A DNA stretch of 64,000 bases. Origin: a virus (taxonomy: Duplodnaviria; Caudoviricetes). Under the pieces are notes generated by a model, which worked only from the letters and a program-made list of their open reading frames with translations, did no database searches and was not told the DNA's origin. The DNA is taken from positions 5,955 to 69,954 of IMG/VR virus record IMGVR_UViG_3300032030_000067, one strand, 5' to 3'. This document shows, piece after piece, positions 19,422 through 56,556 of the stretch (positions within the stretch are counted from its first letter, which is position 1; each line of letters opens with the position of its first letter). Both the position numbers and the translations under genes were made by a program.

Positions 19422-19922
19422 TTAAATATTTAATGTTTCTTCTGCAAAAATAGGAGTTTTTTCTTTTTTAATATTGAGAAAAACATCCAAAATGTCATTG
19501 TATTTGTAATTAAGTTTTCTTGACTTGAAATAATGAAAGTCTTGTGGATTGTATAATTTGTATATTCCATCGAGCATTTTGTCTATCGCATCTTCATATT
19601 CGTCAGGAAATTTGATTGCAATCACTAGTCTTTTTGGAGATTTTGTCTTTTTTTCAACATCAAAAATATACATTCCCTTAAAACTTTCGTGTTGTTCTAT
19701 TGATTTTAACACAAACGACAATGTTTCAAAATCAGAATGTTTTACATTTGAAAGAACATACAGACATTGTGTGTCAGGTTCAAATTCTGCGTCATTGCAA
19801 AACGCACCTTGTATTTCAAGTTTGTTTAGCTGTTTTGAAAATTCCTCCCCATACTTGTATAGCATGGGAAAGAGATATTTCAATGTTTTGTTGTTTATTT
19901 TTCTTTCATCTTTTATTTTCAT
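19422..19922 (-). CDS. Hypothetical protein
   Basis: 166-aa ORF coupled to the upstream nuclease gene (4-nt overlap). Confidence 0.7.
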   Translation of the reverse strand: MKIKDERKINNKTLKYLFPMLYKYGEEFSKQLNKLEIQGAFCNDAEFEPDTQCLYVLSNVKHSDFETLSFVLKSIEQHESFKGMYIFDVEKKTKSPKRLVIAIKFPDEYEDAIDKMLDGIYKLYNPQDFHYFKSRKLNYKYNDILDVFLNIKKEKTPIFAEETLNI

Positions 19923-20986
19923 CGTATTTCGTTCCAGTTAAGTAATTTCATTTCTGTATTGTTTGCGAATCCCTTATCAATATAGTTTATGTATTTACAT
20001 ATCAATTGGTCATAACCTTCTGTTCTCCAATATAGTTTTTGGGGTTCTCCGCCTTTGCTAAATAATACATGCTCTGTAGGTACAGAATAACCGTGTTTCC
20101 CTCTTATAAGAATATCATCATCACATTTTATCAGAATTGGCTCTGTATGATTAGGGATAGTTGATGCAACAAGAAAGAAGCACTCTATTTCAAAGTTAGA
20201 TTCCCAATATGCGAGTTCTTCAAGACCTGTTATTCCATTGTCTTGCAATAGCATTCTTGCGTTTTGTTGTACAAGCTCCTTATACCATGCCATTTGAATG
20301 TCATAGCGGTATTTTCGCAGAGATTCTGGAAATTCCATAGTTGCGCCTGATGTGGTTTTCAAATCTATGATTTGGAACTTGTGGTTCTCCATGTCAACAA
20401 GAAGCATGTCAAGAAGCCCCTTTATGTCAATGCCGTAATAATTTCCATATAACGGTTTTTGGATATACTGCGCTTTGTCCTCAAAGAACATACTGTGACC
20501 TCTCATAAAAGTAGAGAGTTCCATTGTTATGACTTGTGCTCTTGTGAGCATATCCTCGCTAATTATTGTCAGGCCTTCTGAGACTTTAAGTTCTTGCAGA
20601 TATGCAAGTCCGTCCTTTGTGATTTTGTTCAACAATGTGTCAGATTTGTATGTCGGATAATAGTTATGGTCATTGGCTATGGACAGCAACAGCCCTGTAT
20701 GATAGAAATCAGTGGGTTCTCCGTCATTTTGCTTTATGCAATTGTAATATTCGGTCACAATATTTTTCATAGTGTCTGAGGGTTGTTTTATTGTTGACAC
20801 ATAGAACTCATTGTTGAACTCTTCGGGTGTGAGGAACAGGCAGTCCACGAGAGATCCGAGTTTCAGTGATTCTGTTTCCTCTTTGTCCTCTTTGAGAAAT
20901 TCCCAAGGCCTGTAGCCAATGAGTTTTTTCAGTTTGCTTTGGTTAAGTGCAGGATTGTCCCTGTATTCTTTTACTTCTTTATTCAT
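19919..20986 (-). CDS. PD-(D/E)xK exonuclease (RecE/exonuclease VIII-like)
   Basis: LNQSKLK, LGSLVDC, KGLLD, IIDLKTT and YDIQMAWY motifs. Confidence 0.85.
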   Translation of the reverse strand: MNKEVKEYRDNPALNQSKLKKLIGYRPWEFLKEDKEETESLKLGSLVDCLFLTPEEFNNEFYVSTIKQPSDTMKNIVTEYYNCIKQNDGEPTDFYHTGLLLSIANDHNYYPTYKSDTLLNKITKDGLAYLQELKVSEGLTIISEDMLTRAQVITMELSTFMRGHSMFFEDKAQYIQKPLYGNYYGIDIKGLLDMLLVDMENHKFQIIDLKTTSGATMEFPESLRKYRYDIQMAWYKELVQQNARMLLQDNGITGLEELAYWESNFEIECFFLVASTIPNHTEPILIKCDDDILIRGKHGYSVPTEHVLFSKGGEPQKLYWRTEGYDQLICKYINYIDKGFANNTEMKLLNWNEIR

Positions 20987-27468: not shown

Positions 27469-28239
27469 TTAAAGACGACTAGAACTAATCTTATATATCA
27501 TATCTGATGTAAGATATGGTAATATCAAATTTTCAAAAGCAGATACAGACTTATATCTTAAATATAAAGTTTTGTCCTTTTTCACTAAAAATTCCAAATT
27601 GAATTTTTGTCTTAAGAACTCAACAAATTCATAAAGATTATCTGTCTCAAAACATTGTAAATTAAGATTATATGAATTTTGATTTTTACATCCATCATCC
27701 ATATATAAATATGACAAAGATCTTGCTGTAAAATGTTCTTTTAAAAAATCAACAGGAATTATTTTTATTCCTTTAGGATAAAATATGTTCCTATATTTAA
27801 TCAAACACTTACAATTATGACTTCTTGCATATAAAACAGGTTGTATGTTACATTGTTTCCCTTTTATTATAGCGGTTTTATAATATTGTCTTTCTATTAT
27901 AGAAGCCATTAAAGGTCTAAGAATATTAAATTTATGTTTAGCATAAATTTCTTGTTTTTTACAATGACTAAAAGTTAAACACGGATAATTACATCCATCA
28001 TGCGTATACCCTATATAAGAATCTCCCAACAAAGTTCCAATTAGAACTTCTTCTTGATATTTGTTTAAACTTATAGTTTCTAACACGGGAGATAATTTTA
28101 ATATGATATTTCTTGCATAAGTTATTGTACTCAACGGTTTTTTAAGATGCTTGGCTATTTTAACATCATTATAACCCAAAGAATACAAGATTTGTAATCG
28201 TCCTAAATTTAGTTTGCTTTTTCTTACTTTTCTTTTCAT
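27469..28239 (-). CDS. LAGLIDADG homing endonuclease (double motif) with N-terminal HTH
   Basis: LIGTLLGDSYI and LSYLYMDDG motifs; AT-rich; lies inside the intron. Confidence 0.88.
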   Translation of the reverse strand: MKRKVRKSKLNLGRLQILYSLGYNDVKIAKHLKKPLSTITYARNIILKLSPVLETISLNKYQEEVLIGTLLGDSYIGYTHDGCNYPCLTFSHCKKQEIYAKHKFNILRPLMASIIERQYYKTAIIKGKQCNIQPVLYARSHNCKCLIKYRNIFYPKGIKIIPVDFLKEHFTARSLSYLYMDDGCKNQNSYNLNLQCFETDNLYEFVEFLRQKFNLEFLVKKDKTLYLRYKSVSAFENLILPYLTSDMIYKISSSRL

Positions 28240-32138: not shown

Positions 32139-32396
32139 TTACATTAGGTCGTCATAAAATATTTCAAATCCTGTTTTTACTCTGTCATTATATCCTTCAG
32201 AATTCAGTTTGTCGTAAGTATCTTTTATGAAATTCTCCCATTGCTTGTCCTTCCATTTAGCCATCTTCATAATATGTTTAAACTCATCACAGCTATCAGA
32301 AAGTGTTTTATTGCAACATTCTCGTGCTGTGCAAATATTACAATGACAAATTTGTTTTGCTCTTTCTTTGTTTGTCATAACTTTTTTTTCTTTCAT
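32139..32396 (-). CDS. Small Cys-rich protein, MAxWKD paralog family
   Basis: MTNKERAKQIC...MAKWKDKQ. Confidence 0.6.
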   Translation of the reverse strand: MKEKKVMTNKERAKQICHCNICTARECCNKTLSDSCDEFKHIMKMAKWKDKQWENFIKDTYDKLNSEGYNDRVKTGFEIFYDDLM

Positions 32397-34659: not shown

Positions 34660-35079
34660 TTAATTAAAATTATACATTCCTTCGGGTGCTTCTAGAGCAA
34701 GACCTTTTTCAATCAGACCTCTGTAATCAAAATGGTGCTGATTAAGCCAATCTATAAACTCTTGTACTTCGTCAATATCAACAGAATAACCAATCTCAAT
34801 ACTAAATCTGTTTTTATCAAAAATATCAGCGAAATCCCAACAAAATCTTTCTTCTAAATCTTTATATTCCTCCTCTGTCATACTTGACATTGGACGGAGA
34901 TAGGGTAATATTTCAATCCTATCAAATCTAAAGGCATCTATATGGTCAATCCATAGATTGGTGTCAAGTTCCCCGTCCTGAAACCCCTCATATCCTTGAT
35001 TGAAGACTTGTATTCTCGGATAATACGGTTCTCTTGCACAAAGGTCTATCAGTAATAGTCTCTTTTCTTCTTGTGTCAT
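34660..35079 (-). CDS. Hypothetical protein, paralog of 35721-36086
   Basis: DLCAR.PY...PYLRPMSSMTEEE...DWLN..HFDYRGLI..GLAL.APEGMY. Confidence 0.75.
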   Translation of the reverse strand: MTQEEKRLLLIDLCAREPYYPRIQVFNQGYEGFQDGELDTNLWIDHIDAFRFDRIEILPYLRPMSSMTEEEYKDLEERFCWDFADIFDKNRFSIEIGYSVDIDEVQEFIDWLNQHHFDYRGLIEKGLALEAPEGMYNFN

Positions 35080-35678: not shown

Positions 35679-35720
35679 AGTATGATGTTTTATTATCTTG
35701 ACTTTTTGTAGATTGTTTTC

Positions 35721-36086
35721 TTAATCATTATACATTCCTTCAGGAGCTGGGAGTGCAAGTCCCATTGGGATTAAACCCCGGAAGTCAAAGCGATTAGCAT
35801 TAAGCCAATCAAACATTTTACTTTCATTGTCTAATGTCAACATATCCGTAATTACTATAGGGCATATTTTAACGCAATGAAATTGAACAAATTCTTTTTG
35901 TTCTTCCTCCGTCATACTCTCCATTGGGCGGAGGTATGGTTTGCAATCATTAATGTACGGATGATAATTGGCTGTATATATAACAGGTCCATCATCCAAT
36001 TTGTTTCTTCCGTCTTCGACAAAAACTCCATAAGGCAACCTCGCACAGAGGTCTTGTAATAAAAGTTCTTTTTCTTCTTTATTCAT
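35721..36086 (-). CDS. Hypothetical protein, paralog of 34660-35079
   Basis: Same motif set as 34660-35079; start set at MNKEEKE. Confidence 0.75.
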   Translation of the reverse strand: MNKEEKELLLQDLCARLPYGVFVEDGRNKLDDGPVIYTANYHPYINDCKPYLRPMESMTEEEQKEFVQFHCVKICPIVITDMLTLDNESKMFDWLNANRFDFRGLIPMGLALPAPEGMYND

Positions 36087-36090
36087 AATC

Positions 36091-36360
36091 TTATCTTTTA
36101 ATTGTATCATACAAGCCATCTTTATTTCTCTTTTCTAACATTACGCCTATTGAACCATAATATTTATATGACCATTTATCTAATAGGTAATATAGAATAT
36201 ATGCTAATATTTTACTATTTGTTGCAATCTGACCATCTAAAGGTATTGCAGCAGATGATATATATTCAAACTTTCTTGAAACAATTATATATTTTCTTTC
36301 TTGTAATTTTGGCATTTCAAGACCTAAATATAAATTCTTGTATTTTTTTTCTTGTGTCAT
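36091..36360 (-). CDS. Hypothetical protein
   Basis: 89-aa ORF. Confidence 0.5.
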   Translation of the reverse strand: MTQEKKYKNLYLGLEMPKLQERKYIIVSRKFEYISSAAIPLDGQIATNSKILAYILYYLLDKWSYKYYGSIGVMLEKRNKDGLYDTIKR

Positions 36361-36372
36361 AATTATTTGGTT

Positions 36373-36642
36373 TTATCTAATTTTTATAGTATCTCCAACT
36401 TGATATAGTGTGTCTGTATAGATATAACAGCTTGCCTTAAAACGAGTGTTAAATTCTTGACCTACAGTAACACGATATTTTTTATTTTTGCCATAAACAA
36501 ATTCAGAGCTTTTTACTTCTACACTTGTAACTATACCAAAATCATTGACGTGTTGTCTAAAACAACAGCAACACATTATTATCAATGTTATTGCGATACA
36601 AACTGTAACAAAAAATTCTTTTACCTTTTCTTTATCTTTCAT
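36373..36642 (-). CDS. Small membrane-anchored protein
   Basis: N-terminal hydrophobic helix followed by a Cys cluster; ends YQVGDTIKI. Confidence 0.6.
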   Translation of the reverse strand: MKDKEKVKEFFVTVCIAITLIIMCCCCFRQHVNDFGIVTSVEVKSSEFVYGKNKKYRVTVGQEFNTRFKASCYIYTDTLYQVGDTIKIR

Positions 36643-36662
36643 AGTTTTAATTTATTCTTCTT

Positions 36663-36911
36663 TTAATATTTCGCTATAGGCTTCATTGCCCAAGTCGCGT
36701 CCCATGCGGGCGCGTGGATTGAAACGTTACCTTCACTGTCAAACAGACCTGTGAACTGGCAGACGGTTTCAGGGTCAACACAATACACGTTGTAGCTGTG
36801 AGGCACCTCTTCTGGAAAGATAAGGCACTCGTCTGTAACGCATAACAAGTTCCCAATTAACCATTCGCTAGTATGTTCTCTTTTACCTTTGAATTTTATT
36901 GCCCGTTTCAT
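36663..36911 (-). pseudogene. YopX-family gene truncated by a CRISPR repeat
   Basis: IKFKGK...W..GNL...VDPETVCQFTGLFD is typical of YopX. The expected G.EI.EGDI continuation is replaced by VSIHAPAWDAT, the translated repeat. Confidence 0.7.
36694..36725 (+). CRISPR. Solitary type I-C-like CRISPR repeat
   Basis: 32 nt GTCGCGTCCCATGCGGGCGCGTGGATTGAAAC with a 7-bp hairpin and an ATTGAAAC 3' handle; no second copy seen nearby. Confidence 0.85.
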
Positions 36912-37260
36912 TTTTTACAATTATTTCTGCATTATTTGAACGTATTGATTCAATTTCTTTTTTTGAGTCTCTATATTTCTGAACAGCCTCAATATAACTG
37001 CTTTCCACATTTTGTGTGTGTTTAGTTAAGCGATTGTTAATTAATTGTTGTGTTTCATCACATTGTAAATCAAACACTAGAATTAAAGAACGATCTTCCC
37101 ATATTTCTTTCTCTTTATCATAGGTAAAATTGAAATATTGTATTGCATCATTAGCAAGAATTTTATTGCTGCATGCTTCTGTAATTCTTAATTCAATAAT
37201 TCTACCATTTAAAGTTATCGCCCAAGCTGGACAAAATAAATTCTTTGGGTGTCTTTCCAT
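36883..37260 (-). CDS. Hypothetical protein
   Basis: Start set at MERHPK, after the upstream stop. Confidence 0.55.
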   Translation of the reverse strand: MERHPKNLFCPAWAITLNGRIIELRITEACSNKILANDAIQYFNFTYDKEKEIWEDRSLILVFDLQCDETQQLINNRLTKHTQNVESSYIEAVQKYRDSKKEIESIRSNNAEIIVKNETGNKIQR

Positions 37261-37264
37261 AGTC

Positions 37265-37516
37265 TTATTCCTCCATTGCCTTTTTAAATGCTTCAATATC
37301 TTTGTTTTTAAATGCAAAACAATAAAACGCACCATTAACTTTTACGTTATCATTAAGCCATTTACATGCTTTTTCAATCATCTGCTTATCCTTCCATTTA
37401 GCCATCTCAAGTGCGCCGTATTCAACACTATGGTAATCATGTGGAAAATCACTTAAAATCTGTGACTCTTCTGCAATTTGTTTTGCTTTTTCTTTATTTG
37501 ATATAATTTTATTCAT
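37265..37516 (-). CDS. Small protein, MAxWKD paralog family
   Basis: SNKEKAKQI...MAKWKDKQMIEKACKWL...FKKAMEE. Confidence 0.65.
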   Translation of the reverse strand: MNKIISNKEKAKQIAEESQILSDFPHDYHSVEYGALEMAKWKDKQMIEKACKWLNDNVKVNGAFYCFAFKNKDIEAFKKAMEE

Positions 37517-37712
37517 ATTTCAAAGTTATATTATTTCTTTCTGCGTAACTAACACATTCATCTTTACTTCCTTCAAAAATCCGAGTATTTGTTAACGCCT
37601 TAAAACCGTTATTAAAAGTTAAATAGTACCCGTAAGGAGTGTCCGCTATACAATATTTGCGTTCTGGATGTTGCGGTAAATTTAAATAACAAGGTCTTTG
37701 GTCAATATTCAT
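37509..37712 (-). CDS. Hypothetical protein
   Basis: 67-aa ORF. Confidence 0.55.
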   Translation of the reverse strand: MNIDQRPCYLNLPQHPERKYCIADTPYGYYLTFNNGFKALTNTRIFEGSKDECVSYAERNNITLKYE

Positions 37713-37714
37713 AA

Positions 37715-37936
37715 CTATTCCTCCATTGCTTTATGAAATTCTTTAATATCGAATTCCGTATAAAAATCATAATATTTAAAATAATCAGATAACCAAGCAT
37801 ATACTTTTTCAATAGCAAACTCAACACCTTTTTCAAATGCGAGTCGTTCTGCATATTGTGCCATTTCAGTTTGAAAAAATGGACCTTTGTCCCACAATTC
37901 ATGCTGACATTTAAATATTGCTTCTTCTTTTGTCAT
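37715..37936 (-). CDS. Small protein related to 37265-37516
   Basis: IEKVYAWL...FHKAMEE. Confidence 0.6.
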   Translation of the reverse strand: MTKEEAIFKCQHELWDKGPFFQTEMAQYAERLAFEKGVEFAIEKVYAWLSDYFKYYDFYTEFDIKEFHKAMEE

Positions 37937-37938
37937 AA

Positions 37939-38208
37939 TTATTCCTCCTTATTTATTTCCAAAAATGTATCAATCTGATGACCGAAATCACATTGCAAGC
38001 CATCGGCGAAAAAACCTCTTTTGTTCAACCACAATGTGTATTTCAGGAGGATGTCTCTGATTTGGTAGTCCTTCCATTCAGCCATCTCTTTTAGGTGTAT
38101 AAATTCTACACAACCTTCAGCAACGGATAAACTGCCACCACATTCATGGCAATCTTACCTGTTGCATCCTCCACCAATGATTTCTTGTGCTTTTTCTTCG
38201 TTTGTCAT
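37939..38208 (-). pseudogene. MAxWKD-family gene with in-frame TAA at codon 18
   Basis: MTNEEKAQEIIGGGCNR*DCHECGG...EMAEWKD...KEE*; internal stop at 38155-38157. Confidence 0.65.
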
Positions 38209-42850: not shown

Positions 42851-42925
42851 TGGTACCCCTGGGTTGAATCAAACAACCATCTGAAGTGTAGGAAACTTCC
42901 GTTCTATTCGTTGAACTACAGGGGC
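42851..42925 (-). tRNA. tRNA-Arg(CCU) with encoded CCA
   Basis: Cloverleaf GCCCCTG-TA-GTTC-AACGAATA-GAAC-G-GAAGT-TTCCTAC-ACTTC-AGAT-GGTTG-TTTGATT-CAACC-CAGGGGT-A-CCA. Confidence 0.85.
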
Positions 42926-43108: not shown

Positions 43109-43183
43109 TGGTTCCACTTGGGCTCGAACCAAGGACCTACTGATTATGAGTCAGTTGCTACTAACCAACTGAGCTATGGAACC
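43109..43183 (-). tRNA. tRNA with CAU anticodon (probably Ile2, possibly Met)
   Basis: GGTTCCATAGCTCAGTTGGTTAGTAGCAACTGA-CTCATAA-TCAGTAGGTCCTTGGTTCGAGCCCAAGTGGAACCA. Confidence 0.9.
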
Positions 43184-45984: not shown

Positions 45985-46084
45985 AACTTCTATGTTTTGA
46001 TGATTAAAGTTTACAACAGTGGACTCCCCACTGCCTCCCTGCTATCCAATTGATTTCCCCTGTCCTCGTGCTCGTTTCTTTCGT

Positions 46085-46222
46085 GTCTCTGTTTTTCCGC
46101 GCCCGAAAATTTTTTTCCCGAACACTTCGACCAGGGGGGGGACTCCGAAAAAAAATTTTCACCCGCCGCCCCGGCGGGAGGGTATTCCACGCACTCTCTA
46201 TGACTATACATTTTTTCCGCGC
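46085..46222. other. GC-rich divergence point, candidate genome end or packaging site
   Basis: G8 run (46134-46141) flanked by a 12-bp inverted repeat (46105-46116 and 46149-46160); TTTTTCCGCGC occurs twice; strand-switch point. Confidence 0.45.
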
Positions 46223-46299
46223 ATTCTCAACAACTCTGTAATTTTGATGAGATTTGGGATGGTTTCATAATGTTTCTGAAAAAAAGTTTTGTGATTGTG

Positions 46300-46330
46300 T
46301 TTGGGATTCAGAAAAAAATGTATATCTTTG
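46300..46330 (+). promoter_or_regulatory. Bacteroidota sigma-A promoter for the packaging/structural module
   Basis: TTTG-N19-TATCTTTG consensus. Confidence 0.75.
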
Positions 46331-46357
46331 CGGGGATTAAAAAATTTTTATTGCGAT

Positions 46358-46684
46358 ATGGATATAGTAAAGACATTTGTATGTGACGGCAAGGGATATT
46401 ACGAGAGGCATTTGCGGATCATGAATGCTATGTTACCTGTGATGATGACTGAGAAGGAGATAGAGTTTTTGGGTTGCTGGATGTATTTTGGTGGTGGGGA
46501 GATGGATGAGAGGATAAAGGGGTTGGTCAAGGAATGCATGGGTTTGAGTGCGAGCGGGTTTTCAAATTACATGAGCGGTTTGAGGAAGAAGGGATTTGTG
46601 AGGGGTGATGAGATATGGAGGAGATTGCTGATAGATTCTGACGAGCAGAGGTACGGCATAAGGATAATCAGGGAGGAGGAGTAG
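46358..46684 (+). CDS. Hypothetical protein, possibly winged-helix DNA-binding
   Basis: Start moved to the ATG after the promoter; MGLSASGFSNYMSGLRKKGFV resembles an HTH. Confidence 0.6.
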   Translation: MDIVKTFVCDGKGYYERHLRIMNAMLPVMMTEKEIEFLGCWMYFGGGEMDERIKGLVKECMGLSASGFSNYMSGLRKKGFVRGDEIWRRLLIDSDEQRYGIRIIREEE

Positions 46685-46685
46685 T

Positions 46686-47165
46686 ATGGACAGTGGCATA
46701 AGGGAGTTTTGTGACGAGCACGGTTACAGCGAGAAGGAGGTTAGTGACATACTGGAGAGTTACTTCAGGATGGTGAGGTGGTGTATAAGTGTTGGAAGCA
46801 GGGAGTTCAAGATCAAGCGTGTGGGTGGTTTCGAGTATATCAACGCTGATGTGATGTTGAAGCATATTAAGAGGTTGCGCAGGAAGATAGAGTACGAGCG
46901 TGAGATTGACTATGATGAGTTGCTGGAGTATGTTGAGAAGGCCAAGGAGAGGCGTGATATCAGGAGGGAGAAGTGCAAGAGGAGTCTGAAGGAGCTGTTT
47001 GCTGCGAGGGGCATGGAGTTTGACGAGGGCATTTATGACGGCACGTCCGGTGAGAACAGTTTCAAGGCTCGCGGGAAGTACAGGATTGAGGAGAGGAAGA
47101 GGCGAAAGAACGATTATAAGAAGACAAGGACAAGTTTAAAAAAGGAAAGAGATGAGAATAAGTGA
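46686..47165 (+). CDS. Possible HU/IHF-like DNA-binding protein
   Basis: N-terminal helices followed by FKIKRVGGF; basic tail. Confidence 0.45.
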   Translation: MDSGIREFCDEHGYSEKEVSDILESYFRMVRWCISVGSREFKIKRVGGFEYINADVMLKHIKRLRRKIEYEREIDYDELLEYVEKAKERRDIRREKCKRSLKELFAARGMEFDEGIYDGTSGENSFKARGKYRIEERKRRKNDYKKTRTSLKKERDENK

Positions 47166-47487
47166 CATTTTTTATTTTGTACAGGGAAATGTGAGGTATT
47201 TCCTTGTTAAGTGCTTCGGGGAGTCCGTATTGCGGGCTCACATAGGGGAGCAGGTTATGATGAGGTTTGCGAATGCTGACCGCGAGTGTTTGTATGGCGG
47301 TGCCTGTAAGATATGCGGTTGCCACATGCCCGCGCTGCTGTATGCTGACAAGAGTTGTGACAAGCCGTGCTATCCGCCTATGATGGGCAAGAGGGAGTGG
47401 ATTGAGTTCAAGATGTACGGTGGTAATGACGAATGGATATTAAGGGGGATGAAACTTAGGAAAGTTGACAAAATATACGAGATATGA
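47152..47487 (+). CDS. Cys-rich hypothetical protein
   Basis: CLYGGACKICGC...CDKPCYP. Confidence 0.65.
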   Translation: MRISDIFYFVQGNVRYFLVKCFGESVLRAHIGEQVMMRFANADRECLYGGACKICGCHMPALLYADKSCDKPCYPPMMGKREWIEFKMYGGNDEWILRGMKLRKVDKIYEI

Positions 47488-47780
47488 GCGCGTTTGTAAG
47501 CAATTTGGTGGTGCTTGGCAAGGTTGTCATGGGACAGGTTCTTGCCGGGCGTTTTGACCTTACGGAAGAGGGTTTGAAGAAAGGAATAAGGAAAATAGAC
47601 ACAGGATGCACTTGCGGAGGCAAGAGCAGAATTTCTGTGGCTAAGGATAACAAAGGTTTTTCGTTCAGGAGTGTGCCTTCAAGGAAGGACGCGGGGAAGA
47701 AGGGTGTTGTGAGGAACATAGTTGTTGAGATGAACGACAGGACAAGGGTTATTGTGGGATTCAAATACGATTTGGCATGA
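47484..47780 (+). CDS. Hypothetical protein
   Basis: 98-aa coupled ORF with GCTC. Confidence 0.6.
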   Translation: MSAFVSNLVVLGKVVMGQVLAGRFDLTEEGLKKGIRKIDTGCTCGGKSRISVAKDNKGFSFRSVPSRKDAGKKGVVRNIVVEMNDRTRVIVGFKYDLA

Positions 47781-48331
47781 GTTTTTTGTTTAGCATAGAG
47801 AACAATGTGTGCAAGCCCAAGGAGGAGGTTCTTCTGATAGAGCCTTTCAGGACTATATGGGAAAAGAGCAAGGACAAGAGTGAGGCGATAAGGCATTTCA
47901 CTGTTATAGAGCTATATACGAGCAAGTTGAAGAGCAATCCGTATAGCGGCTATGATGATGTGACAAGGATAAGGAAGCTCACCGCTGAGCAGTATGGTGT
48001 GGAGATGGACTATGACTCGCTTCCAAAGTTGGTTAAGGACGGGATAGTGAAATTGAACGAGATACAGGAGGAGGGAAGTCCTACATATACATATTACTTG
48101 AGCCAGTTGAGGGCTGTGGAGAAGCTGAAGGAGTTTTTCCTCAACTTTGACCTGAACGAGAGGAACGAGAAGGGCATGCTGATATACAAGCCCAAGGAGA
48201 TAACTTCCGCGCTTGCTGACGCGGACAAGATAACACAGAATCTGACAACATTGAGGGACAAGATAGACCAGGAACTGTTTTCCGTTGCAAGAAGCAAGGG
48301 AGGCAGGGAGGCCAACAGGTATGAGGTATGA
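47777..48331 (+). CDS. Protein upstream of terL, candidate terminase small subunit
   Basis: 184 aa, overlaps the terL start; function inferred from position. Confidence 0.5.
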   Translation: MSFLFSIENNVCKPKEEVLLIEPFRTIWEKSKDKSEAIRHFTVIELYTSKLKSNPYSGYDDVTRIRKLTAEQYGVEMDYDSLPKLVKDGIVKLNEIQEEGSPTYTYYLSQLRAVEKLKEFFLNFDLNERNEKGMLIYKPKEITSALADADKITQNLTTLRDKIDQELFSVARSKGGREANRYEV

Positions 48332-50484
48332 TAAGGGGAGACAACGGACACTGGTATGACACGGCGGTATTCCGCGAAGAAGCATTGAAATACAGGGCTA
48401 ACGGATACTATTGTGACCACCCCAAGGGCACTTTGGAGTACAACAACTACTGGGACGAGCAGTTGAGAAGGTGCAAGGAAGGGTATATGTATGATGGCCA
48501 GAAGATAACAGGTCATCATTACTTTTATCTTAACTTCTGTAATATCAATATGATAGATGTGTTAGAAAACAATGATGGTGCGGGTACTGTCAAGGAGAGC
48601 AACTTCCCTGACTTTTGGGACTGGGACTACGAGTATTTCTGGTGGCTTGACATAGCGAGGTTCGGTGTGATAGGGAAGTACGCACAGGCGAGGGAGCTTC
48701 TGACAGATGAGGAGATAAGCCTCATTGAGAATAGGGAATACACGGAAGAGGAGTTATTGTCTCTGAAGAAAGATGTTGTCTATAACAGGCTAAAACTGCG
48801 CTTGAGGACACACGACGAGTGGCTTGACGGAGGACACCACATGATAATAGCGAAGTCAAGGCGTAAGGGTTTCTCATATAAGAACACCGCGTTGTGCGTG
48901 AACACATACAACACCGTAAGGAACTCGCAGTGCCTGATAGGTGTCATTGACAAGAAGTATTCTGACGAGGATATGCGTATGATAGGCACATATCTTGATG
49001 TGATAAACGACAATACGGCATGGGGCAAGAGGAGGGAGGTCAAGGACAGGTCTGACTGGAAAAGGGCTTCCTACATAGAGATGAACGCGGAGGGAAAGAC
49101 CGTTGAGAAAGGCTACAAGAGCGAGATAAGGACTGTGAGCTTTCAGGACAACCCTGAGGCTGCCAATGGTAAGTCTCCGTACTACATGCTTTTTGAGGAG
49201 GCTGGTATCTTCAACAACCTCAAGAAGTCATGGGATGCCACGGTTCCTGCATTGAAGGCTGGCAAATATGTTGTGGGACAGGCGATTATATTTGGTACTG
49301 GTGGTGTGATTTCAGACAATAACGGAGAGTTTTCCGATATGTTCTACGATCCTATGACCTATAACATGATGCCTTTCCAGAACGTGTGGGATGAGGGTTG
49401 CTCGGGAGACTGGTGCGGGTTCTTCTTTTCCGCCACATACAATCTTGAAGGTTTCTATGACAGACAGGGCAACTCTGACATGGAAGGTTCTCTTGACTGG
49501 CTCAATAAGGAGAGAAAGAGGCTCTTGGAGAATGCGAGGACAATAGAGGCGTATAACGGTTTTGTAATACAGTTCCCGATATGTCCGAAGGAGTCCTTCA
49601 AGACAAGCGGAAGGAACATATTCAACATACCCTCGCTTGAAACGCAGTTGAGCAAGGTAAGGGCTGAAAAGCTGATGCTCAAGAAAGGCACTTGCGTGAA
49701 ACTTGAATACACGGATGATGGCAAGAAGGTAAAGGCAAAACCGATATTGAGCGGCAATGCAAATCCGATATTGGAGTACAGGCCGAAGAATTCATCGCTT
49801 GTAGGATGTCCTATCATATACGAGTACCCTGTGAACGACCCTCCTTTCGGACTTTACAAGATAGGATATGACCCTTACGCGCAGGAACATGCTACAACTG
49901 ATTCATTATCAGCGATATTCGTGTATAAGGGAATATTGAGGGGCAATTCTACGAGGAACATCATAGTTGCGGAGTATGTGGGAAGGCCTGAGACTGCAGA
50001 TCAGAGTGATGAGATAGCATTGAAACTTGCGATACTCTACAATACTGCGGTAATGTTCGAGAACAACGTGAACCACACACAGGCTTATTTCAGCAGAAAG
50101 CACCAGTTGAACAGGTTGTGCCTGCAGCCTGACAGGGTTATCAGCAAGAACATAAAGGGCAGCAAGGTTGCTCGTAAGTTCGGCTGTCATCTTGACGGGA
50201 AGATGAAGACCGCAGGTGAGGAGTATCTTAAGGAATACCTTATGTCGGTGATAGACTATGATGAGAATGGTGATGAGGTTACGGCTGTGGACTACATATA
50301 CAGTATAGGGCTTCTTGAAGAACTGATAAAATACTACAGGGACGGGAACTTTGACCGTGTGTGCGCATTGTTCCAGATAATGTTCCAGTTGCAGGACGAG
50401 GAGCTCGAGCACGAGTTTACGACAAACAGGACAAACAACAGGATAGAGGAATTAAGGAAATTGGAATTATTTAAAAGAGCTTAA
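48328..50484 (+). CDS. terL: Terminase large subunit
   Basis: KSRRKGFSY (Walker A), LFEEAG (Walker B), IFGTGG, IGYDPY nuclease motif, GNFDRV. Confidence 0.92.
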   Translation: MIRGDNGHWYDTAVFREEALKYRANGYYCDHPKGTLEYNNYWDEQLRRCKEGYMYDGQKITGHHYFYLNFCNINMIDVLENNDGAGTVKESNFPDFWDWDYEYFWWLDIARFGVIGKYAQARELLTDEEISLIENREYTEEELLSLKKDVVYNRLKLRLRTHDEWLDGGHHMIIAKSRRKGFSYKNTALCVNTYNTVRNSQCLIGVIDKKYSDEDMRMIGTYLDVINDNTAWGKRREVKDRSDWKRASYIEMNAEGKTVEKGYKSEIRTVSFQDNPEAANGKSPYYMLFEEAGIFNNLKKSWDATVPALKAGKYVVGQAIIFGTGGVISDNNGEFSDMFYDPMTYNMMPFQNVWDEGCSGDWCGFFFSATYNLEGFYDRQGNSDMEGSLDWLNKERKRLLENARTIEAYNGFVIQFPICPKESFKTSGRNIFNIPSLETQLSKVRAEKLMLKKGTCVKLEYTDDGKKVKAKPILSGNANPILEYRPKNSSLVGCPIIYEYPVNDPPFGLYKIGYDPYAQEHATTDSLSAIFVYKGILRGNSTRNIIVAEYVGRPETADQSDEIALKLAILYNTAVMFENNVNHTQAYFSRKHQLNRLCLQPDRVISKNIKGSKVARKFGCHLDGKMKTAGEEYLKEYLMSVIDYDENGDEVTAVDYIYSIGLLEELIKYYRDGNFDRVCALFQIMFQLQDEELEHEFTTNRTNNRIEELRKLELFKRA

Positions 50485-50486
50485 AA

Positions 50487-53030
50487 ATGGAAGACAGACA
50501 AGGTTATCTGGTAGGTCAGCGACTTACCGAGCGTCAGAAGCGGGCTGACGGAAAGAAATGGTTCAAGGAGAACATAGACCGCACAAGGATGGAGTTTGAC
50601 GGAAGGTTCTACCCTTCTGAATTCAACGAGGACACTTTCGGAAGATTCGAGGGTGACTACAGATATAGGGACATGAAGATAAACTATGACCTGTATGACG
50701 GAAAGATTCAGAGAGAGGACTTCAAGTATATCTATGCTCCGTACGGCGGTGATATGGAACAGCCCGTTGATTTCACGAACAAGGACATCATAGGAAAGAG
50801 GATAAACGCCATTGACGGTATGGAAAGGCAAAGGCAGTTCTCTTTCCGTGTGAACGCCATAAATCCCGAGGCTTCTACAAGAAGGGAGGACGAAGAGTTC
50901 AATATGATAAGGGAGTTCGTGATACAGCAGATTATGAAACCCATTGAGGAGGAGGAAAGGCAGAAAGCTGAACAGCAGATGGGACAGGCCCAAATGCAGT
51001 TGCAGCAGTTACAGGCAAGCGGTGCTTCGCAAGAGGAGATACAACAGGCACAGCAGCAGATGCAGCAAGCCCAGCAGCAGTTGGAACAGCAGGTTCAGCA
51101 ACAGGTTGAGGCAAGGACTCCGGAACAGGTGAAACTCTATATGAAAAGGGAACATCAGGACCCTGCAGATGTGCTTGGTTCGCAGATATTGCAGTATGTA
51201 AGGCATGATCAGGATGTGAAGGAGAAGTGGAATCTCATAAACAAGGACTTCTGTTGTGTCGGCAGAGCCATAGGCTATGTTGGGGAAAGATACAAAAAGA
51301 CTGTATTTGAGAGAGTCAATCCTCTGACTTTCAGATTTTCAAGAAGCGGAAGCTCACATTACATTGAAGATGGGGAATGGTGTTCATATGAAAGATATCT
51401 CACTCCGAGCGAAGTTACTATGGAGTTTGGTGATGAGCTTTCGGACAAGGACATGAAAGATCTTCTCAACGGAGTGAGAGGGGCTTCTGACACAGACTAT
51501 TACTACAGGGGCTATGAAAAGAGGGATTCCTATGTTGACGGAGGTATAAGGTGCATACACGCTCAATGGAAGGATTCCAAGAAGATAGGGTTCCTTACAT
51601 ACACTGATGAGAGTGGGGAGGAGCAGATGACCATAGTGAGCGACGAGTACAAGATGAATCCAGAGGCAGGTGACATAAATATTGAATGGGAATGGGTTGC
51701 CTGTGTCTATGAGGGCTACAAGCTTGGTGCTGACAAATATGTTAAAATGAGGGAAGTTCCCGGTCAGTTTGATGATATAAACAACTTGAACAATCGTGAG
51801 AAGTGCAAACTGTCCTATGTTGGAGTATGGGTTGACGCCTCGCTTATTGACAGAATGAGATACTATCAGTTCCTGTACAGTATTATATGGTACAGAATTG
51901 AAATGCTTATGGCCAAGGATAAGGGCAAGTCTGTAGGTATGAACATAGATATGGTTGACGACAATATGGGCTTGCAGAAGTTCTTGGAATATGCGGAGAA
52001 TGTGGGTATATTCTTCTTCAGTGGAAACACGAAGGACGGTGACAAGGCAAGCCCTATGAACATAGGCGAGTCAATCAAGGAGGTTGACAGGGGCATGGGT
52101 TCTGACATCAAGCAGTATATGGACTTGGCCGAATACATAGACATAAAGTGCGGCGAGTGTGTAGGCATTAACCAGCAGATTCTCGGTAATGTACAGCAGA
52201 ATGAGGCTGTGACAAACGCACAGATGGCTGTGACTAACGGTGCTACGGTTCTTGAACATCATTTCAGTATGTTCAACCATTTCAAACAGAGAACATTACA
52301 GGCTATGATAGAATGTGCGAAGGATGTGTTCATGAAATATCAGCCCGAGGTTATGCAATATGTTCTTGACGATTTCACTGTTGAGTTGCTGAAGCCTGAC
52401 TATGATTTGCTTGACCAGTCAACCTACGGCATTGTGATAGACAATTCCGTCAAGTCAAACCAGATACTTGACACTGTTGTGCAGCTGATACAGCCCGCAA
52501 TGCAGAACCAGAAGATAGAGTTGAGCGATGTTGTCAAGGTTCTCAAGGCGGAGAGCGTGCAAGAGGCTGAGGAGATTCTTCTCAAGGCGGAGGATGATAG
52601 GAAAGCCTACGAGCAACAAATGCAGCAGCAACAGGCACAGAACGAACAGGAGGCTCAGAGACAGAAACTTGAAGCGCAAATGCAACTTGTACAGGCACAG
52701 AACCAAGCCAAGATGGAGCAGATAAAACTGCAAGGGGAGTATGATTTGAGGCTCAAGGAGATGGATTTGCAGAGACAGACACTGCTTGCATTGGGATTCA
52801 GCGACCAGAAAGACCTCAACGAGAACAAGGTTCCCGATGTGTATGAGTACATGAAGATGATGTTGGAGCAGTACAAGTCAAACCAGAAGGACAGGGAGCT
52901 TGACCAGAAGGAGAGGAAGCAGCGTCTTGACGAGGAATCCTTGGCTCACAAGAAGGATTTTGACGACAAAAAGCTCCAACTTGAGAAGGAAAAGATTCAG
53001 AAAATGGCTCAAAAATCGAAAAATTCATAA
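50487..53030 (+). CDS. Portal protein
   Basis: 847 aa directly after terL; INYDLYDG motif; coiled-coil C-terminus; crAss gene order. Confidence 0.85.
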   Translation: MEDRQGYLVGQRLTERQKRADGKKWFKENIDRTRMEFDGRFYPSEFNEDTFGRFEGDYRYRDMKINYDLYDGKIQREDFKYIYAPYGGDMEQPVDFTNKDIIGKRINAIDGMERQRQFSFRVNAINPEASTRREDEEFNMIREFVIQQIMKPIEEEERQKAEQQMGQAQMQLQQLQASGASQEEIQQAQQQMQQAQQQLEQQVQQQVEARTPEQVKLYMKREHQDPADVLGSQILQYVRHDQDVKEKWNLINKDFCCVGRAIGYVGERYKKTVFERVNPLTFRFSRSGSSHYIEDGEWCSYERYLTPSEVTMEFGDELSDKDMKDLLNGVRGASDTDYYYRGYEKRDSYVDGGIRCIHAQWKDSKKIGFLTYTDESGEEQMTIVSDEYKMNPEAGDINIEWEWVACVYEGYKLGADKYVKMREVPGQFDDINNLNNREKCKLSYVGVWVDASLIDRMRYYQFLYSIIWYRIEMLMAKDKGKSVGMNIDMVDDNMGLQKFLEYAENVGIFFFSGNTKDGDKASPMNIGESIKEVDRGMGSDIKQYMDLAEYIDIKCGECVGINQQILGNVQQNEAVTNAQMAVTNGATVLEHHFSMFNHFKQRTLQAMIECAKDVFMKYQPEVMQYVLDDFTVELLKPDYDLLDQSTYGIVIDNSVKSNQILDTVVQLIQPAMQNQKIELSDVVKVLKAESVQEAEEILLKAEDDRKAYEQQMQQQQAQNEQEAQRQKLEAQMQLVQAQNQAKMEQIKLQGEYDLRLKEMDLQRQTLLALGFSDQKDLNENKVPDVYEYMKMMLEQYKSNQKDRELDQKERKQRLDEESLAHKKDFDDKKLQLEKEKIQKMAQKSKNS

Positions 53031-53151
53031 CAAAAATGAATGGCGCTCGTGGAAAAAAAACGCGTTTGGTGCCATATTATATTCAAAAACGGATTTCATA
53101 AAAAACATTAAAATTCAAATCAAAGATTAATTTAATTTAAATTTGCAACGT

Positions 53152-54210
53152 ATGGAAAACAATGTAGAAACTTTGGACAAGTTTGAGTTTGAAACTCAGG
53201 AAGGAATCAATGACTGGTTTGAGGACACTTCTAAGGCTGAAAACAAGCCCGCAGAGGAGCCCAAACAGCAGCCTGCGGACACTGGTGAAGGCACAACGGA
53301 GAAAGCATCGCAGGCCGAAGAAAAACCGCAAGAGGAGACTCCTACAGAGGATTCGTACTACACGGACCTGTACAGGAACTTTCGGGAATTGGGTGTGGTT
53401 GAAGAGGACTATAACCTTCCCGAAGGCAATCTTACCAGCGAGGACCTTTTAAGCATTCTCAACGAGGAGAAGAAAAGAGGTGCGCAAAAGTATTATGAGG
53501 AGAACATCTGGAGCAAGATAGCCGACGACAAGGATGCTGCTGATTTCATCAAGTACAAGATGCAAGGTGGAAAGACCAGCGAGTTCTTCAAACTTTACGG
53601 GAAACAGGCTGAATTTGACTTTGAGGGTGACATTACCAATGAGAGATACCAGGATGCTGTAATCAGGAAATATCTCACGGAACATGACGGCATGACACAG
53701 GAAGAGGTTGAGGAGCAGCTTGAAATGCTTGAGACAAGCGGTAAGAAAGAGAAGTATGCCAAGAGATACCATGAGATGATGCTCCGTGACTTTGACACGC
53801 AGAAGTCATTGCTTCAGAAACAGAAGGAGATTGAGGAGCAGAAACGTCAGGAGGCATACAAACAGTGGAATGACACGGTTATCAACGAGATCAACTCCAC
53901 ACAGGATATCTATGGAATGAAACTCGACAAGAAGCGCAGGGAAAGCCTGTACAAGGAACTGACACAGCCTCTTGAACTGCAGGATGGGAGTATAACAACA
54001 CCTTTGTACTACAGGCTTAACAATGTGCTTGCAGATCCTAAGAAGATGCTCGTACTTGCAGACCTTCTTATGAACGACCTTAACATTGACAAGTACAAGG
54101 CGGGAGTAAAGACACAGGTGGCAAAGGAAATCAGAAGGGATTTGCAGTTTAACAGAACCTCATCAAAAAAACAGTCTGGCAATGAACAAGAGACGGACTG
54201 GTTCGATTAA
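53152..54210 (+). CDS. Putative scaffold or head assembly protein
   Basis: Acidic coiled-coil protein between portal and MCP; ATG start chosen over TTG 53143. Confidence 0.6.
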   Translation: MENNVETLDKFEFETQEGINDWFEDTSKAENKPAEEPKQQPADTGEGTTEKASQAEEKPQEETPTEDSYYTDLYRNFRELGVVEEDYNLPEGNLTSEDLLSILNEEKKRGAQKYYEENIWSKIADDKDAADFIKYKMQGGKTSEFFKLYGKQAEFDFEGDITNERYQDAVIRKYLTEHDGMTQEEVEEQLEMLETSGKKEKYAKRYHEMMLRDFDTQKSLLQKQKEIEEQKRQEAYKQWNDTVINEINSTQDIYGMKLDKKRRESLYKELTQPLELQDGSITTPLYYRLNNVLADPKKMLVLADLLMNDLNIDKYKAGVKTQVAKEIRRDLQFNRTSSKKQSGNEQETDWFD

Positions 54211-54242
54211 AAATAATATTGTTAAACACAAATTAAAGTAAG

Positions 54243-55676
54243 ATGAAACTTAATATTGACGCGACAAAACTTATGCCCATGTCAGGAAGCATGACAAATC
54301 TGAACCATCTTGGGTCCGCTTTGTTTGCCAAACCTGAAATGTTTGAGGGCGTATTAGACCAACTTTTTATTACGCAGACACTTTCCGTGCATCCTTTCCT
54401 CAATATGAGCGTAGGTCACGAAAAGATCGTTGAATCCAACGAATGGGAATACAAGGTTCGCGGTGCGAAGACCAGACCCCTTATCCTTCTTGAGACGGTT
54501 AGCGGTACTGGCGCATACGGTCAGATTCTTGAAATGAAATTCGACGAGGAGTTCTGGATGGAAGGTGATGTGATCACTGCTGGTGACCAATTCCACGATA
54601 CGCAGTGCCGTATCATGAAGAACCCCTACAGAAGCGGCAATGGCTGGATTTATGAGGCACAGCTTGTTTCAAAAGACCAAACCCAAACTATTGACGCAAG
54701 ATTCTTGCAGGCAGGCACCCCTTGGGCAAAACTGTATTCAACCTACGGTGAGGCTGCTGATAAGGGCGGTTCAAGCGCATTCCCCGGTTCGCTGGCTTTG
54801 AAAGGCCATCTGGGCAAACTGCGTAAGACATACAAGATCACTGACTATGCTGCAGAACAGAAAATCATCGCCATGCGTCTGAAAGACGAGACTGGCAAGT
54901 CCTATGACAGATGGATTCCCTTTGCAGAGGCAGAGGCTGCTAGCAAGTTCAAGGATGAGAAAGAGATTGCATGCTGGTTCAACCATGACGGTTATCTGAT
55001 GCAGGACAACGGCTATCCCGTTGATTCATTCCCTGGCATTATCGCACAAATCCGTGAGAATGGCTGGAAAATGCCCTACACCACTTTGAGCGCAAAGATG
55101 ATTGAATCGTTCGTACAGGATATTTTCTTCGGCAGAAGGGAACCTGTTTTCGGCAAGAGAGAACTCGTTGCTTTCACTGGTAGTGAAGGTTTGATGAAGT
55201 TCAACAAGCTGTTGCAGAGCGAATATGGTAAGAACGGCTGGATGATTGCAAATCCTGATTTCAATCCCGCACAGAAGACCAGCTCTCCGCAACACCCGAA
55301 TGCCTACTCATACGGTTATCAGTTTACTGAATACAAGATGGGCAATGGCGGTCATATCAAACTGGTTTACAATCCGTTGTTTGACTCAATGGAATACAAC
55401 CTTGACCTTGATCCTGTTACCAAGAGACCAAAGGCTTCCTCAATGTTCGTGTTTTTCGATGTTGAAAGCAACAATGGTCTTGGCAACAATGTCCAACTGG
55501 TTGTTAAGAGAAACGGTTACAAGCACGGTTATCACCAAGGTCTTGTTGGTCCTACCGGCCCTGCACAAGGCGGTATGATTGCACACCCCGGTGAATACTA
55601 TTCAGCTGAGTTTTCAAGTGAGTTCGGTATTCAAATCATAGACCCGACCCGTACAGGTCTGATCTATATGCAATAA
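54243..55676 (+). CDS. Major capsid protein
   Basis: 477 aa; position; strongly biased codon usage; followed by a terminator. Confidence 0.85.
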   Translation: MKLNIDATKLMPMSGSMTNLNHLGSALFAKPEMFEGVLDQLFITQTLSVHPFLNMSVGHEKIVESNEWEYKVRGAKTRPLILLETVSGTGAYGQILEMKFDEEFWMEGDVITAGDQFHDTQCRIMKNPYRSGNGWIYEAQLVSKDQTQTIDARFLQAGTPWAKLYSTYGEAADKGGSSAFPGSLALKGHLGKLRKTYKITDYAAEQKIIAMRLKDETGKSYDRWIPFAEAEAASKFKDEKEIACWFNHDGYLMQDNGYPVDSFPGIIAQIRENGWKMPYTTLSAKMIESFVQDIFFGRREPVFGKRELVAFTGSEGLMKFNKLLQSEYGKNGWMIANPDFNPAQKTSSPQHPNAYSYGYQFTEYKMGNGGHIKLVYNPLFDSMEYNLDLDPVTKRPKASSMFVFFDVESNNGLGNNVQLVVKRNGYKHGYHQGLVGPTGPAQGGMIAHPGEYYSAEFSSEFGIQIIDPTRTGLIYMQ

Positions 55677-55693
55677 AAATTAAATTAATTTTC

Positions 55694-55728
55694 AAGGGGA
55701 GAGGGCAAGTCTCCCTCTTCTCTTTTTT
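55694..55728 (+). terminator. Intrinsic terminator after MCP
   Basis: AAGGGGAGAGGG-CAAGTCT-CCCTCTTCTCTTTTTT. Confidence 0.8.
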
Positions 55729-55749
55729 ATAATATAAAATATCACAGAA

Positions 55750-56556
55750 ATGGAAAATTATATTATTGAGGTAAGACCACTTGAGAAGAAGAGGTGGCAC
55801 GGCAAGACGCAGAAGGAATTCCCTTCCGCACCAATGATTGTTGAATGTTATGTCAATCTTGAGAACAGGAAATGGGAGACAGGATTGACGGAAGAGGACA
55901 GAAAGAGATTGCAGAAAATTACAGGATTGGACTTGCACGAGCATTTCATTCCTGACGAGGAGCATCCTTTCTATTCCACGGACAACGGACATGTGAAGCT
56001 CGACTATGACAGGACAAACTATTTTGACATGCGCAGACCCATTGACGAGATTCATGTAAAGATGCTTATGGCAAGTCCTCTTGTGGCCAACTCGCAGTCC
56101 GATTGGGATGAGGGCAAGTGTCCGCAAGCCCAGTTCGTTATTTACGATTCGCGCGAGGAGGTTGAGAAGAAGGCTGAAAAGAGCAAGAAAAGAACGCAGA
56201 TTTACAATCTGTGGTCAAAGATGGACACAACCACAAAGAAACAGGTTGTACAGATTCTGCTCAACCAGAGCATGAAGAACCAGTCTGATGACTATATTGA
56301 CTCCAAGATGGAGGATATCATGTCCACACAGGGCTTTGACAAGGTTCTTGAAGTGTTCAATCAGAGCAAGGCTGACAACTATATGCACTCCCTGATTATC
56401 GACGCTGTTGACAAGAACATCATGCAGTTGAGAGGAGGTGTTTACTATTATATGGATGAGGCTATGGGCGGAATCCATGACACCATGAGATTCTTGCAGG
56501 ATGTGAAGAACAACGCCATTAAGGGACAGATTATTGACAAACTGAATTTGAAATAG
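55750..56556 (+). CDS. Conserved crAss-like protein downstream of MCP
   Basis: 268 aa; position in the head module. Confidence 0.65.
   Translation: MENYIIEVRPLEKKRWHGKTQKEFPSAPMIVECYVNLENRKWETGLTEEDRKRLQKITGLDLHEHFIPDEEHPFYSTDNGHVKLDYDRTNYFDMRRPIDEIHVKMLMASPLVANSQSDWDEGKCPQAQFVIYDSREEVEKKAEKSKKRTQIYNLWSKMDTTTKKQVVQILLNQSMKNQSDDYIDSKMEDIMSTQGFDKVLEVFNQSKADNYMHSLIIDAVDKNIMQLRGGVYYYMDEAMGGIHDTMRFLQDVKNNAIKGQIIDKLNLK

Follow-up and report, generated by a model that had tools for sequence, protein, structure and literature searches.

A solitary type I-C CRISPR repeat inside a disrupted yopX gene of a crAss-like phage as a possible scar of recombination with a host array

Solitary CRISPR repeats in viral genomes are currently interpreted as RNA anti-CRISPRs (Racrs). 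As set out in PMC10651486, these solitary repeat units (SRUs) consist of a single full repeat in a virus, with neither cas genes nor a second repeat, and the subtype of this repeat corresponds to that of the CRISPR system in the likely host. Type I-C units are among them, and one has been validated. In this report, we describe a solitary type I-C repeat in a window of 64,000 nucleotides (nt), comprising bases 5955–69954 of the linear 69,954-bp IMG/VR virus record IMGVR_UViG_3300032030_000067, which belongs to a crAss-like phage from the sheep gut. The repeat has all of these properties in common with the described units. However, those units were sought in intergenic DNA and are located shortly after a promoter or in an acr operon, whereas the phage repeat is found in a broken gene, yopX, in the antisense orientation and with no promoter seen. 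A solitary type I-C repeat is therefore a known kind of element, and it is the setting that is unusual and informative. No match to the exact repeat was found in the text of the seven supplementary files of PMC10651486, a text that is possibly incomplete. The word recombination does not occur in the main text of that paper or of a 2024 review, and thus the origin of solitary repeats is not addressed in either.

Recombination between a targeting spacer and the phage genome has been described and was attributed to promiscuous phage recombinases (10.1101/2020.10.09.333658, citing Varble 2019 and Watson 2018). There, one spacer length of homology suffices for phage recombinases, and phage DNA becomes linked to repeats, as at the present locus. 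The difference is that whole CRISPR loci are transduced in the cited cases, whereas here the product would be a viable phage with one repeat that has lost a gene segment and a protospacer-adjacent motif (PAM). Viral mini-CRISPR arrays that act in conflicts between viruses likewise place a host-identical repeat beside sequence that matches related viruses, and they have two repeats, or one repeat and a truncated one, around a spacer (PMC11656645, PMC8616872). Neither arrangement is found here, and there is no second repeat one spacer length away from the first.

CRISPR-targeted phages escape by loss of the PAM or by deletion of a dispensable gene segment. The loss of a PAM and of a dispensable segment would be common to such mutants and to the phage described here; the difference is that, in place of a point mutation or simple deletion, the repeat of the host serves as the replacement. 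We propose, with moderate confidence, that the repeat derives from a host type I-C array, of which it is a piece, and was brought into the phage by homologous recombination. The locus is a clean case, in which both junctions lie in readable coding sequence and two PAM-flanked targets agree with the geometry.

The repeat, the interrupted yopX gene and the junctions

The 32-nt repeat begins GTCGCG, finishes GGATTGAAAC and is predicted to fold into a 7-bp stem with a 5-nt loop and an 11-nt 3' tail (–11.6 kcal/mol). In type I-C systems, the 11-nt tail becomes the 5' handle of the CRISPR RNA (crRNA). A single copy was found in the window at up to 3 mismatches (0 of 100 shuffled controls contained a match), and there is only one in the whole 69,954-bp record. 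A second repeat, full or partial, was found neither within 300 nt at up to 10 mismatches nor elsewhere in the window at up to 11, and no Cas5d gene was found in the record. An earlier reading, made from the sequence alone, had described a complete and solitary type I-C repeat with no array or cas genes in the window, and these results bear it out. A single full repeat, with no second repeat and no cas genes, corresponds to an SRU; the intergenic position demanded by SRUFinder is lacking, since the repeat sits within an open reading frame (ORF) of 82 residues inside the disrupted yopX (Table 1). The scores with the Rfam models CRISPR-DR9 (17.0 bits, gathering threshold 45) and DR10 (13.9 bits, threshold 39) are below threshold, which says little, since other repeat types underlie both models.

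The N-terminal part of this ORF was identified as YopX by three profiles. The match to phrog_8684 (E 8.9e-13) covers ORF residues 1–61 and profile positions 1–72 of 164, the match to phrog_98 has an E value of 5e-6, and a hidden Markov model (HMM) that we built from 12 YopX homologues gave 65.3 bits over HMM positions 1–60 of 128. The database homologues of the ORF bear PF09643; the 82-residue ORF itself has no match in Pfam, and it is the N-terminal half of YopX alone, not the full-length protein, that is matched. The homology stops precisely at the repeat, after ..GLFDSEGN, which is where the sequence-only reading had placed the cut. The C-terminal half of YopX was not found elsewhere in the window with our HMM.

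The other side of the repeat had been taken for the orphan 3' end of another gene, and this part of the earlier reading is revised here. The motif [VIL]GN occurs 3–20 residues before the stop codon in 9 of the 12 homologues, for example in ..VIGNIFDNPELLQEESDE, and near the stop in 22 of 3267 six-frame peptides from the window. No significant score was obtained for the left flank with our YopX HMM because the piece is only 13 residues long, and the motif count was used instead. The count is suggestive, and the left flank is probably the C-terminus of yopX itself, so that a single gene would have lost its middle and received the repeat in its place. In the homologues, 40–73 residues separate the two breakpoints, which would correspond to the replacement of about 120–220 bp of yopX by 32 bp. 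Because the insert is 32 nt long, the 3' end of yopX is out of frame.

Both junctions are exact, with the whole repeat present, no added bases and yopX coding sequence on either side. The repeat was found in the same context in two metagenome contigs (L013 and L014), which share 99.6–99.7% identity with the window across 2.3 and 3.5 kb and show zero differences from it between positions 35023 and 37497. To the right of position 38208, these contigs diverge from the window yet match each other, and the repeat-bearing segment is therefore present in at least two genome arrangements. An 8270-nt contig of sequencing run X3, which is possibly the source sample of the window, also crosses the site without a difference. 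As far as the contigs show, the junction is real. A relative in run X5 that matches positions 36028–36602 and then jumps to about 37368 was set aside, since the 29 letters on its far side are too weak a match.

Table 1. Features of the repeat locus and of the phage, and cas genes next to the one-mismatch array in the Bacteroidales genome G001
Feature	Position	Strand	Basis
Solitary 32-nt type I-C CRISPR repeat, crRNA-sense, antisense to surrounding genes	36694..36725	+	unique; identical to arrays; hairpin and tail
yopX 5' part, codons 1–62, ends ..GLFDSEGN	36726..36911	-	phrog_8684, phrog_98, own HMM
Present ORF, 82 residues: 62 YopX residues and 20 read through the repeat and an out-of-frame tail	36663..36911	-	
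Probable 3' end of the same yopX, LGNEAYSEILKEE-stop, different frame	36652..36693	-	[VIL]GN motif
Putative left protospacer (36661–36693, 33 nt) with TTC PAM (36658–36660)	36658..36693	+	inferred
Putative right protospacer; former PAM position is the last three repeat bases, AAC	36726..36758	+	inferred
RecE-like exonuclease (PD-(D/E)XK)	19919..20986	-	PF12684 E 2.8e-10; phrog_412 exonuclease VIII E 7.3e-27
cas2	G001, beside one-mismatch array		E 3.3e-19
Type I-C cas1	G001, beside one-mismatch array		467 bits, cut-off 385
cas4	G001, beside one-mismatch array		E 8.8e-36
cas7/Csd2	G001, beside one-mismatch array		299.6 bits, cut-off 182
cas8c/Csd1	G001, beside one-mismatch array		299.5 bits

Host arrays, PAM geometry and other solitary type I-C repeats

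Arrays built of the exact 32-mer were found on the metagenome contigs L012 (44 copies), L015 (79), L016 (20), and L018 (5). One of the contigs with an exact-repeat array has the same sample prefix as the phage-fragment contig L013. The exact repeat is absent from the species-representative genomes and was found in no other IMG/VR contig, in a search from which the record of the phage itself was possibly left out. The nearest repeat in a genome has one mismatch, located in the loop, and belongs to an array in a metagenome-assembled genome (MAG; G001) labelled Bacteroidales bacterium. This array is directly downstream of cas2, cas1c, cas4, cas7/Csd2, and cas8c/Csd1 (Table 1), and the genes and the repeats are on the same strand. 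The assignment to subtype I-C and that of the window plus strand as the crRNA-sense strand are therefore confirmed by the cas locus of G001. Searching for the host through the repeat, as had been suggested beforehand, links this rumen phage of the crAss-like group with Bacteroidales hosts in which a type I-C system is present.

Joints of repeat, spacer and repeat that carry the repeat of the phage were found in contigs of four runs labelled sheep gut or gut. The runs that hold the phage also hold arrays with the identical repeat, and this was counted in favor of an origin of the repeat in a host array. The spacers in the exact-repeat arrays are 32–36 nt long with a mode of 33 nt (78 of 147). 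As a separate observation, the first 5.2 kb of a single 71.5-kb metagenome contig (L010/L011/L017) contain copies of the same type I-C repeat spaced by inserts of 1.2–1.5 kb; one insert encodes AF2212-like and PIN-domain proteins and another a HicB-like antitoxin, and the inserts look like toxin-antitoxin cassettes between CRISPR repeats.

The PAM known from other type I-C systems is 5'-TTC on the protospacer strand. A TTC is found exactly 33 nt to the left of the repeat, as the sequence-only reading had pointed out, and this distance is the modal spacer length of the host arrays; another TTC is located at 36655–36657, 36 nt to the left. In the block of minus-strand genes, the chance of a TTC is 3.6% at exactly 33 nt and 17.4% anywhere from 32 to 36 nt. 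The right junction falls on a codon boundary, and 9 of the 12 homologues, all eight database matches among them, have Glu as the following residue. The Glu codons of the phage are GAA and GAG in a ratio of 300:124; on the plus strand, a GAA codon is read as TTC. On this reading, GAA would be the codon that was lost at this junction. By our estimate, a random junction would fall on a codon boundary before a conserved Glu in about 3% of cases. Both flanks fit protospacers in the same orientation, with the left PAM kept and the right one replaced by the end of the repeat, just as a spacer follows a repeat in an array. The earlier proposal that a GAA codon was lost and a TTC PAM erased is thus favored by the conserved Glu and the codon usage, and it stops short of being established in that no intact relative was found in which the TTC could be read.

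The PAM evidence had been regarded as weak because TTC is common in the window, and it turned out to be stronger than was held. Two patterns that do not overlap were used to scan IMG/VR for type I-C repeats; the first gave 80 loci from 86 stretches and the second 45 loci. From the first set, we dropped 18 loci with multiple repeats, 8 with short flanks, 5 with a partial second repeat and 7 duplicates, which left 42 unique solitary repeats; from the second, 18, 1, 9, and 3 loci were dropped for the same reasons, respectively, and 14 were kept. A TTC is present 32–36 nt upstream of the repeat in 12 of 42 loci in the first set (background 4.4) and in 6 of 14 in the second (background 1.5). In the two sets taken together, 18 of the 56 loci have such a TTC where 5.85 were expected (binomial P 9e-6), and 34 nt is the most frequent distance (7 of 56). 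When the 64 trinucleotides were ranked by upstream enrichment, TTC was first and TTT second. The mirrored test downstream of the same 56 loci gave no signal (GAA 4 against 6.1, TTC 2 against 3.6). The corresponding PAM-distance test for type I-E had 5 loci and 2 singletons, which is too few.

A promoter –35 box does not account for the TTC signal, since a –10-like hexamer 3–18 nt upstream of the repeat was found at 3 of 18 TTC-positive loci, compared with 14 of 38 TTC-negative ones. There may be two classes of solitary type I-C repeats, namely recombination scars and promoter-driven Racrs. Roughly one-fifth to one-third of the solitary type I-C repeats on viral contigs are located at the PAM-distal end of a PAM-flanked segment of spacer length. 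In a host array there is no PAM before the spacers, and the flank at these loci is therefore phage sequence to which the repeat was joined at a spacer boundary. In a literature search, with Faure et al. 2019 outside its scope, no published description of this PAM-distance pattern at solitary repeats was found.

Proposed origin of the repeat and rival explanations

The explanation best supported by these results, for which we see about an even chance, is that the repeat is a recombination scar, with the left PAM backed by a statistical pattern and the right PAM by deduction from the homologues. A Bacteroidales host would have carried two neighboring same-strand spacers against yopX, with targets roughly 120–220 bp apart. 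Such neighboring same-strand spacer pairs tend to be produced by priming. The phage would have recombined with, or have been repaired from, this spacer-repeat-spacer unit, either through a double crossover or with the array serving as the template on which damage by Cas3 was repaired. The RecE-like exonuclease of the phage (Table 1) is a possible helper of short-homology recombination and may have assisted in the repeat event. The DNA between the two targets would have been swapped for the single intervening repeat, breaking yopX, and the TTC PAM of the right-hand target would have become the last bases of the repeat, AAC. The phage would thereby have escaped from the older, leader-distal spacer and would have paid for this with a dispensable gene. 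The newer, left-hand spacer would still target it, and the payoff would be limited to hosts that have the older spacer alone. The repeat would be without a function of its own today.

More generally, and with less confidence than for the origin of this one repeat, we tentatively suggest that one-fifth to one-third of the solitary type I-C repeats of phages are footprints of recombination with arrays rather than evolved anti-CRISPR genes. The present repeat would be among them, as a double event at two adjacent spacers with a PAM erased, and such scars would be possible raw material for Racrs and for phage-borne guides. If this is true, part of the catalogue of candidate Racrs consists of recombination scars, and solitary repeats mark sites at which a phage was actually targeted, which would provide links to hosts without spacer matches. 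The CRISPR array would also act as a repair template that aids the escape of the phage, with the host array supplying the patch.

Several results weigh against a scar of this kind. The sequence-only reading had already proposed recombination with a host spacer-repeat-spacer unit; the geometry and the host-identical repeat agree with it, and neither a matching spacer nor an intact ancestor was found. A total of 933 spacers (749 unique) from all of the fetched arrays was searched against the whole record and both flanks, and the 749 unique spacers gave no alignment to the phage longer than 20 nt and no match to a flank longer than 12 nt. One spacer matched over 19 nt, with a single mismatch, at a site some 430 nt away (E 0.001 per query); this match was rejected because about 0.7 such matches are expected over 749 queries. 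The 33-mers of both flanks, at up to 3 mismatches, are absent from 401 genomes of the order of the MAG. An alignment with phages that have an intact yopX had been proposed; no intact relative was found, the YopX relatives are 38–53% identical with none of them syntenic, and it is from these homologues that the right-junction TTC and the deleted segment are deduced. The neighboring 89-residue protein led to no syntenic relatives, and a blastn search of positions 35700–37950 against 50,697 phage records gave no match. The right-junction peptide, searched as a codon-degenerate pattern, gave a single match, in the unrelated contig L176, which was discarded.

Further points on the same side concern the PAM and the flanks. 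The assignment of TTC as the PAM of this particular host is backed indirectly, by the enrichment test. The left TTC is located within a ..KEE-stop gene-boundary sequence that recurs in the phage and in many contigs, and this alone could explain its presence. The escape would be partial, from one of the two spacers, because the left protospacer keeps its PAM. Finally, direct duplications of 9–34 nt surround 7 of the 56 solitary repeats in the survey, compared with 11 of 1088 control pairs; the duplication-flanked loci include L065, L054, L062/L123, L083, L130, and L136. At L065, the order is TTC, a 34-nt segment, the repeat, one base, and the identical 34-nt segment, that is, a protospacer duplicated around the repeat. 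A double crossover at two spacers leaves such duplications unexplained, and therefore at least one other route of capture exists.

The strongest rival is a working Racr, in which a small plus-strand RNA would mimic the repeat of a crRNA, bind the Cas5d and Cas7 proteins of the host and trap them in dead-end complexes. This is compatible with an origin by recombination, and we consider it unlikely. Viral solitary repeats are established as Racrs, including the validated type I-C RacrIC1 (PMC10651486). The phage repeat is 100% identical to those of the host arrays and has kept the hairpin and the 3' tail, it persists in two genome arrangements, and the same runs are rich in hosts that carry this repeat. 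However, it is found in a broken ORF, antisense to a 27-kb block in which the minus strand carries all of the genes from about 19 to 46 kb, whereas the Racrs described in PMC10651486 are intergenic and either follow a promoter directly or belong to an acr operon. The opposite orientation of the crRNA-sense strand and the absence of an adjacent plus-strand promoter had both been noted beforehand, and both hold. No sigma-70-like promoter adjoins the repeat; there are 4 such sites in 800 nt compared with 3.3 expected, the nearest plus-strand site ends 111 nt upstream, and no terminator was found. A Bacteroidetes-type promoter motif was not found nearby, nor was a –10-like hexamer 3–18 nt upstream, an argument that is weak since the promoters of crAss-like phages are poorly known. 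Contigs of the RNA run X4, which carry no strand information, flank the repeat on either side, and none crosses it among the contigs listed. With the repeat opposite in sense to the genes around it and no promoter in evidence, a Racr role lacks support.

Somewhat less probable again is a single homologous contact. The left protospacer would have paired with its spacer, or a spacer-integration intermediate would have stalled, and the right junction would have been formed by template switching or illegitimate joining. The right flank would then never have been a target, and no PAM would have been erased on purpose. The TTC enrichment is confined to the left flank, and the flank duplications in the survey point to insertion or template switching. 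Against it, the codon boundary ahead of the conserved Glu is exactly where the right junction is located, a position that chance would rarely provide, and there is no flank duplication at this site, where the longest word shared by the two flanks is 5 nt.

An assembly artefact would require that the assemblers left the phage for a host spacer-repeat-spacer unit and then returned to the phage, omitting a real segment of yopX. The arrays are indeed far deeper than the phage in run X3, with a summed depth of about 700–790 for the repeat and about 17 for the phage. However, the identical junction was obtained without differences in three separate assemblies and in the 8270-nt run contig, the artefact would itself require a host array in which the spacers for both flanks are adjacent, and the C-terminal half of yopX is nowhere else in the window. 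We regard this path as highly unlikely.

Equally improbable is a phage-borne guide, in which a plus-strand transcript cut by Cas5d, consisting of the 11-nt handle and yopX antisense sequence, would direct the Cascade complex of the host at siblings with an intact yopX. The carrier would be safe since its own PAM is gone, and the guide would serve in competition between phages, in the manner of viral mini-arrays. A repeat that is directly followed by phage sequence without a PAM is the geometry required, but there is no second repeat within 300 nt to provide the 3' hairpin for normal maturation, no sign of plus-strand transcription, and no known relative with an intact yopX to serve as the target.

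The least credible alternatives are an attachment site for integration of the phage into a host array, as for the streptococcal phage PhiAP1.1, and a Cracr-type repressor of the host cas genes; phages have been described to employ repeat-like sequences in either way (10.1101/2020.10.09.333658, 10.1101/2024.10.29.618823). However, no tyrosine integrase or serine recombinase was found in the record, which is 43% complete. A Cracr would need at least 9 PAM-proximal matches to a host cas or toxin promoter, and the right flank reaches 7 nt at best when compared with 16 kb around the cas genes of G001, which stands in for the host and has a repeat with one mismatch.

The phage and its further features

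The crAss-like assignment of the phage, whose record has a CheckV completeness of 43%, is based on a match to the Crassvirus major capsid family PF23898 at 54243–55676 (E 1e-84, 285 bits). A Crass-type major capsid protein is the mark of membership in the Crassvirales, and the match supplies it. Among 50,697 phage records, 121 relatives of the capsid protein were found, every one of them below 60% identity. Those with an organism or host name all point to Bacteroidota (Flavobacterium, Bacteroides, crAssphage, and Cellulophaga).

Small paralogous gene pairs are found on both sides of the repeat site, at 34660–35079 and 35721–36119 on one side and at 37265–37516 and 37715–37936 on the other. The gene-boundary sequence mentioned above, which joins the ..KEE-stop of a small gene to the MKDKE.. 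start of the next, occurs at 36613–36657, at about 32349–32387 and at other boundaries in the phage. It is common to many other contigs of the same runs, with peaks of depth and loose ends at 36626 and 36671, and it may be a junction at which modules are exchanged.

Two giant ORFs occupy the plus strand at 54–13328 (4424 residues) and 13366–19104 (1912 residues). A LAGLIDADG homing endonuclease gene is located at 27469–28239, amid replication genes, and two tRNA genes are found on the minus strand at 42854–42925 and 43109–43183. The plus-strand structural block at 46001–56000 has a G+C content of 45–47%, compared with 31–38% in the remaining window.

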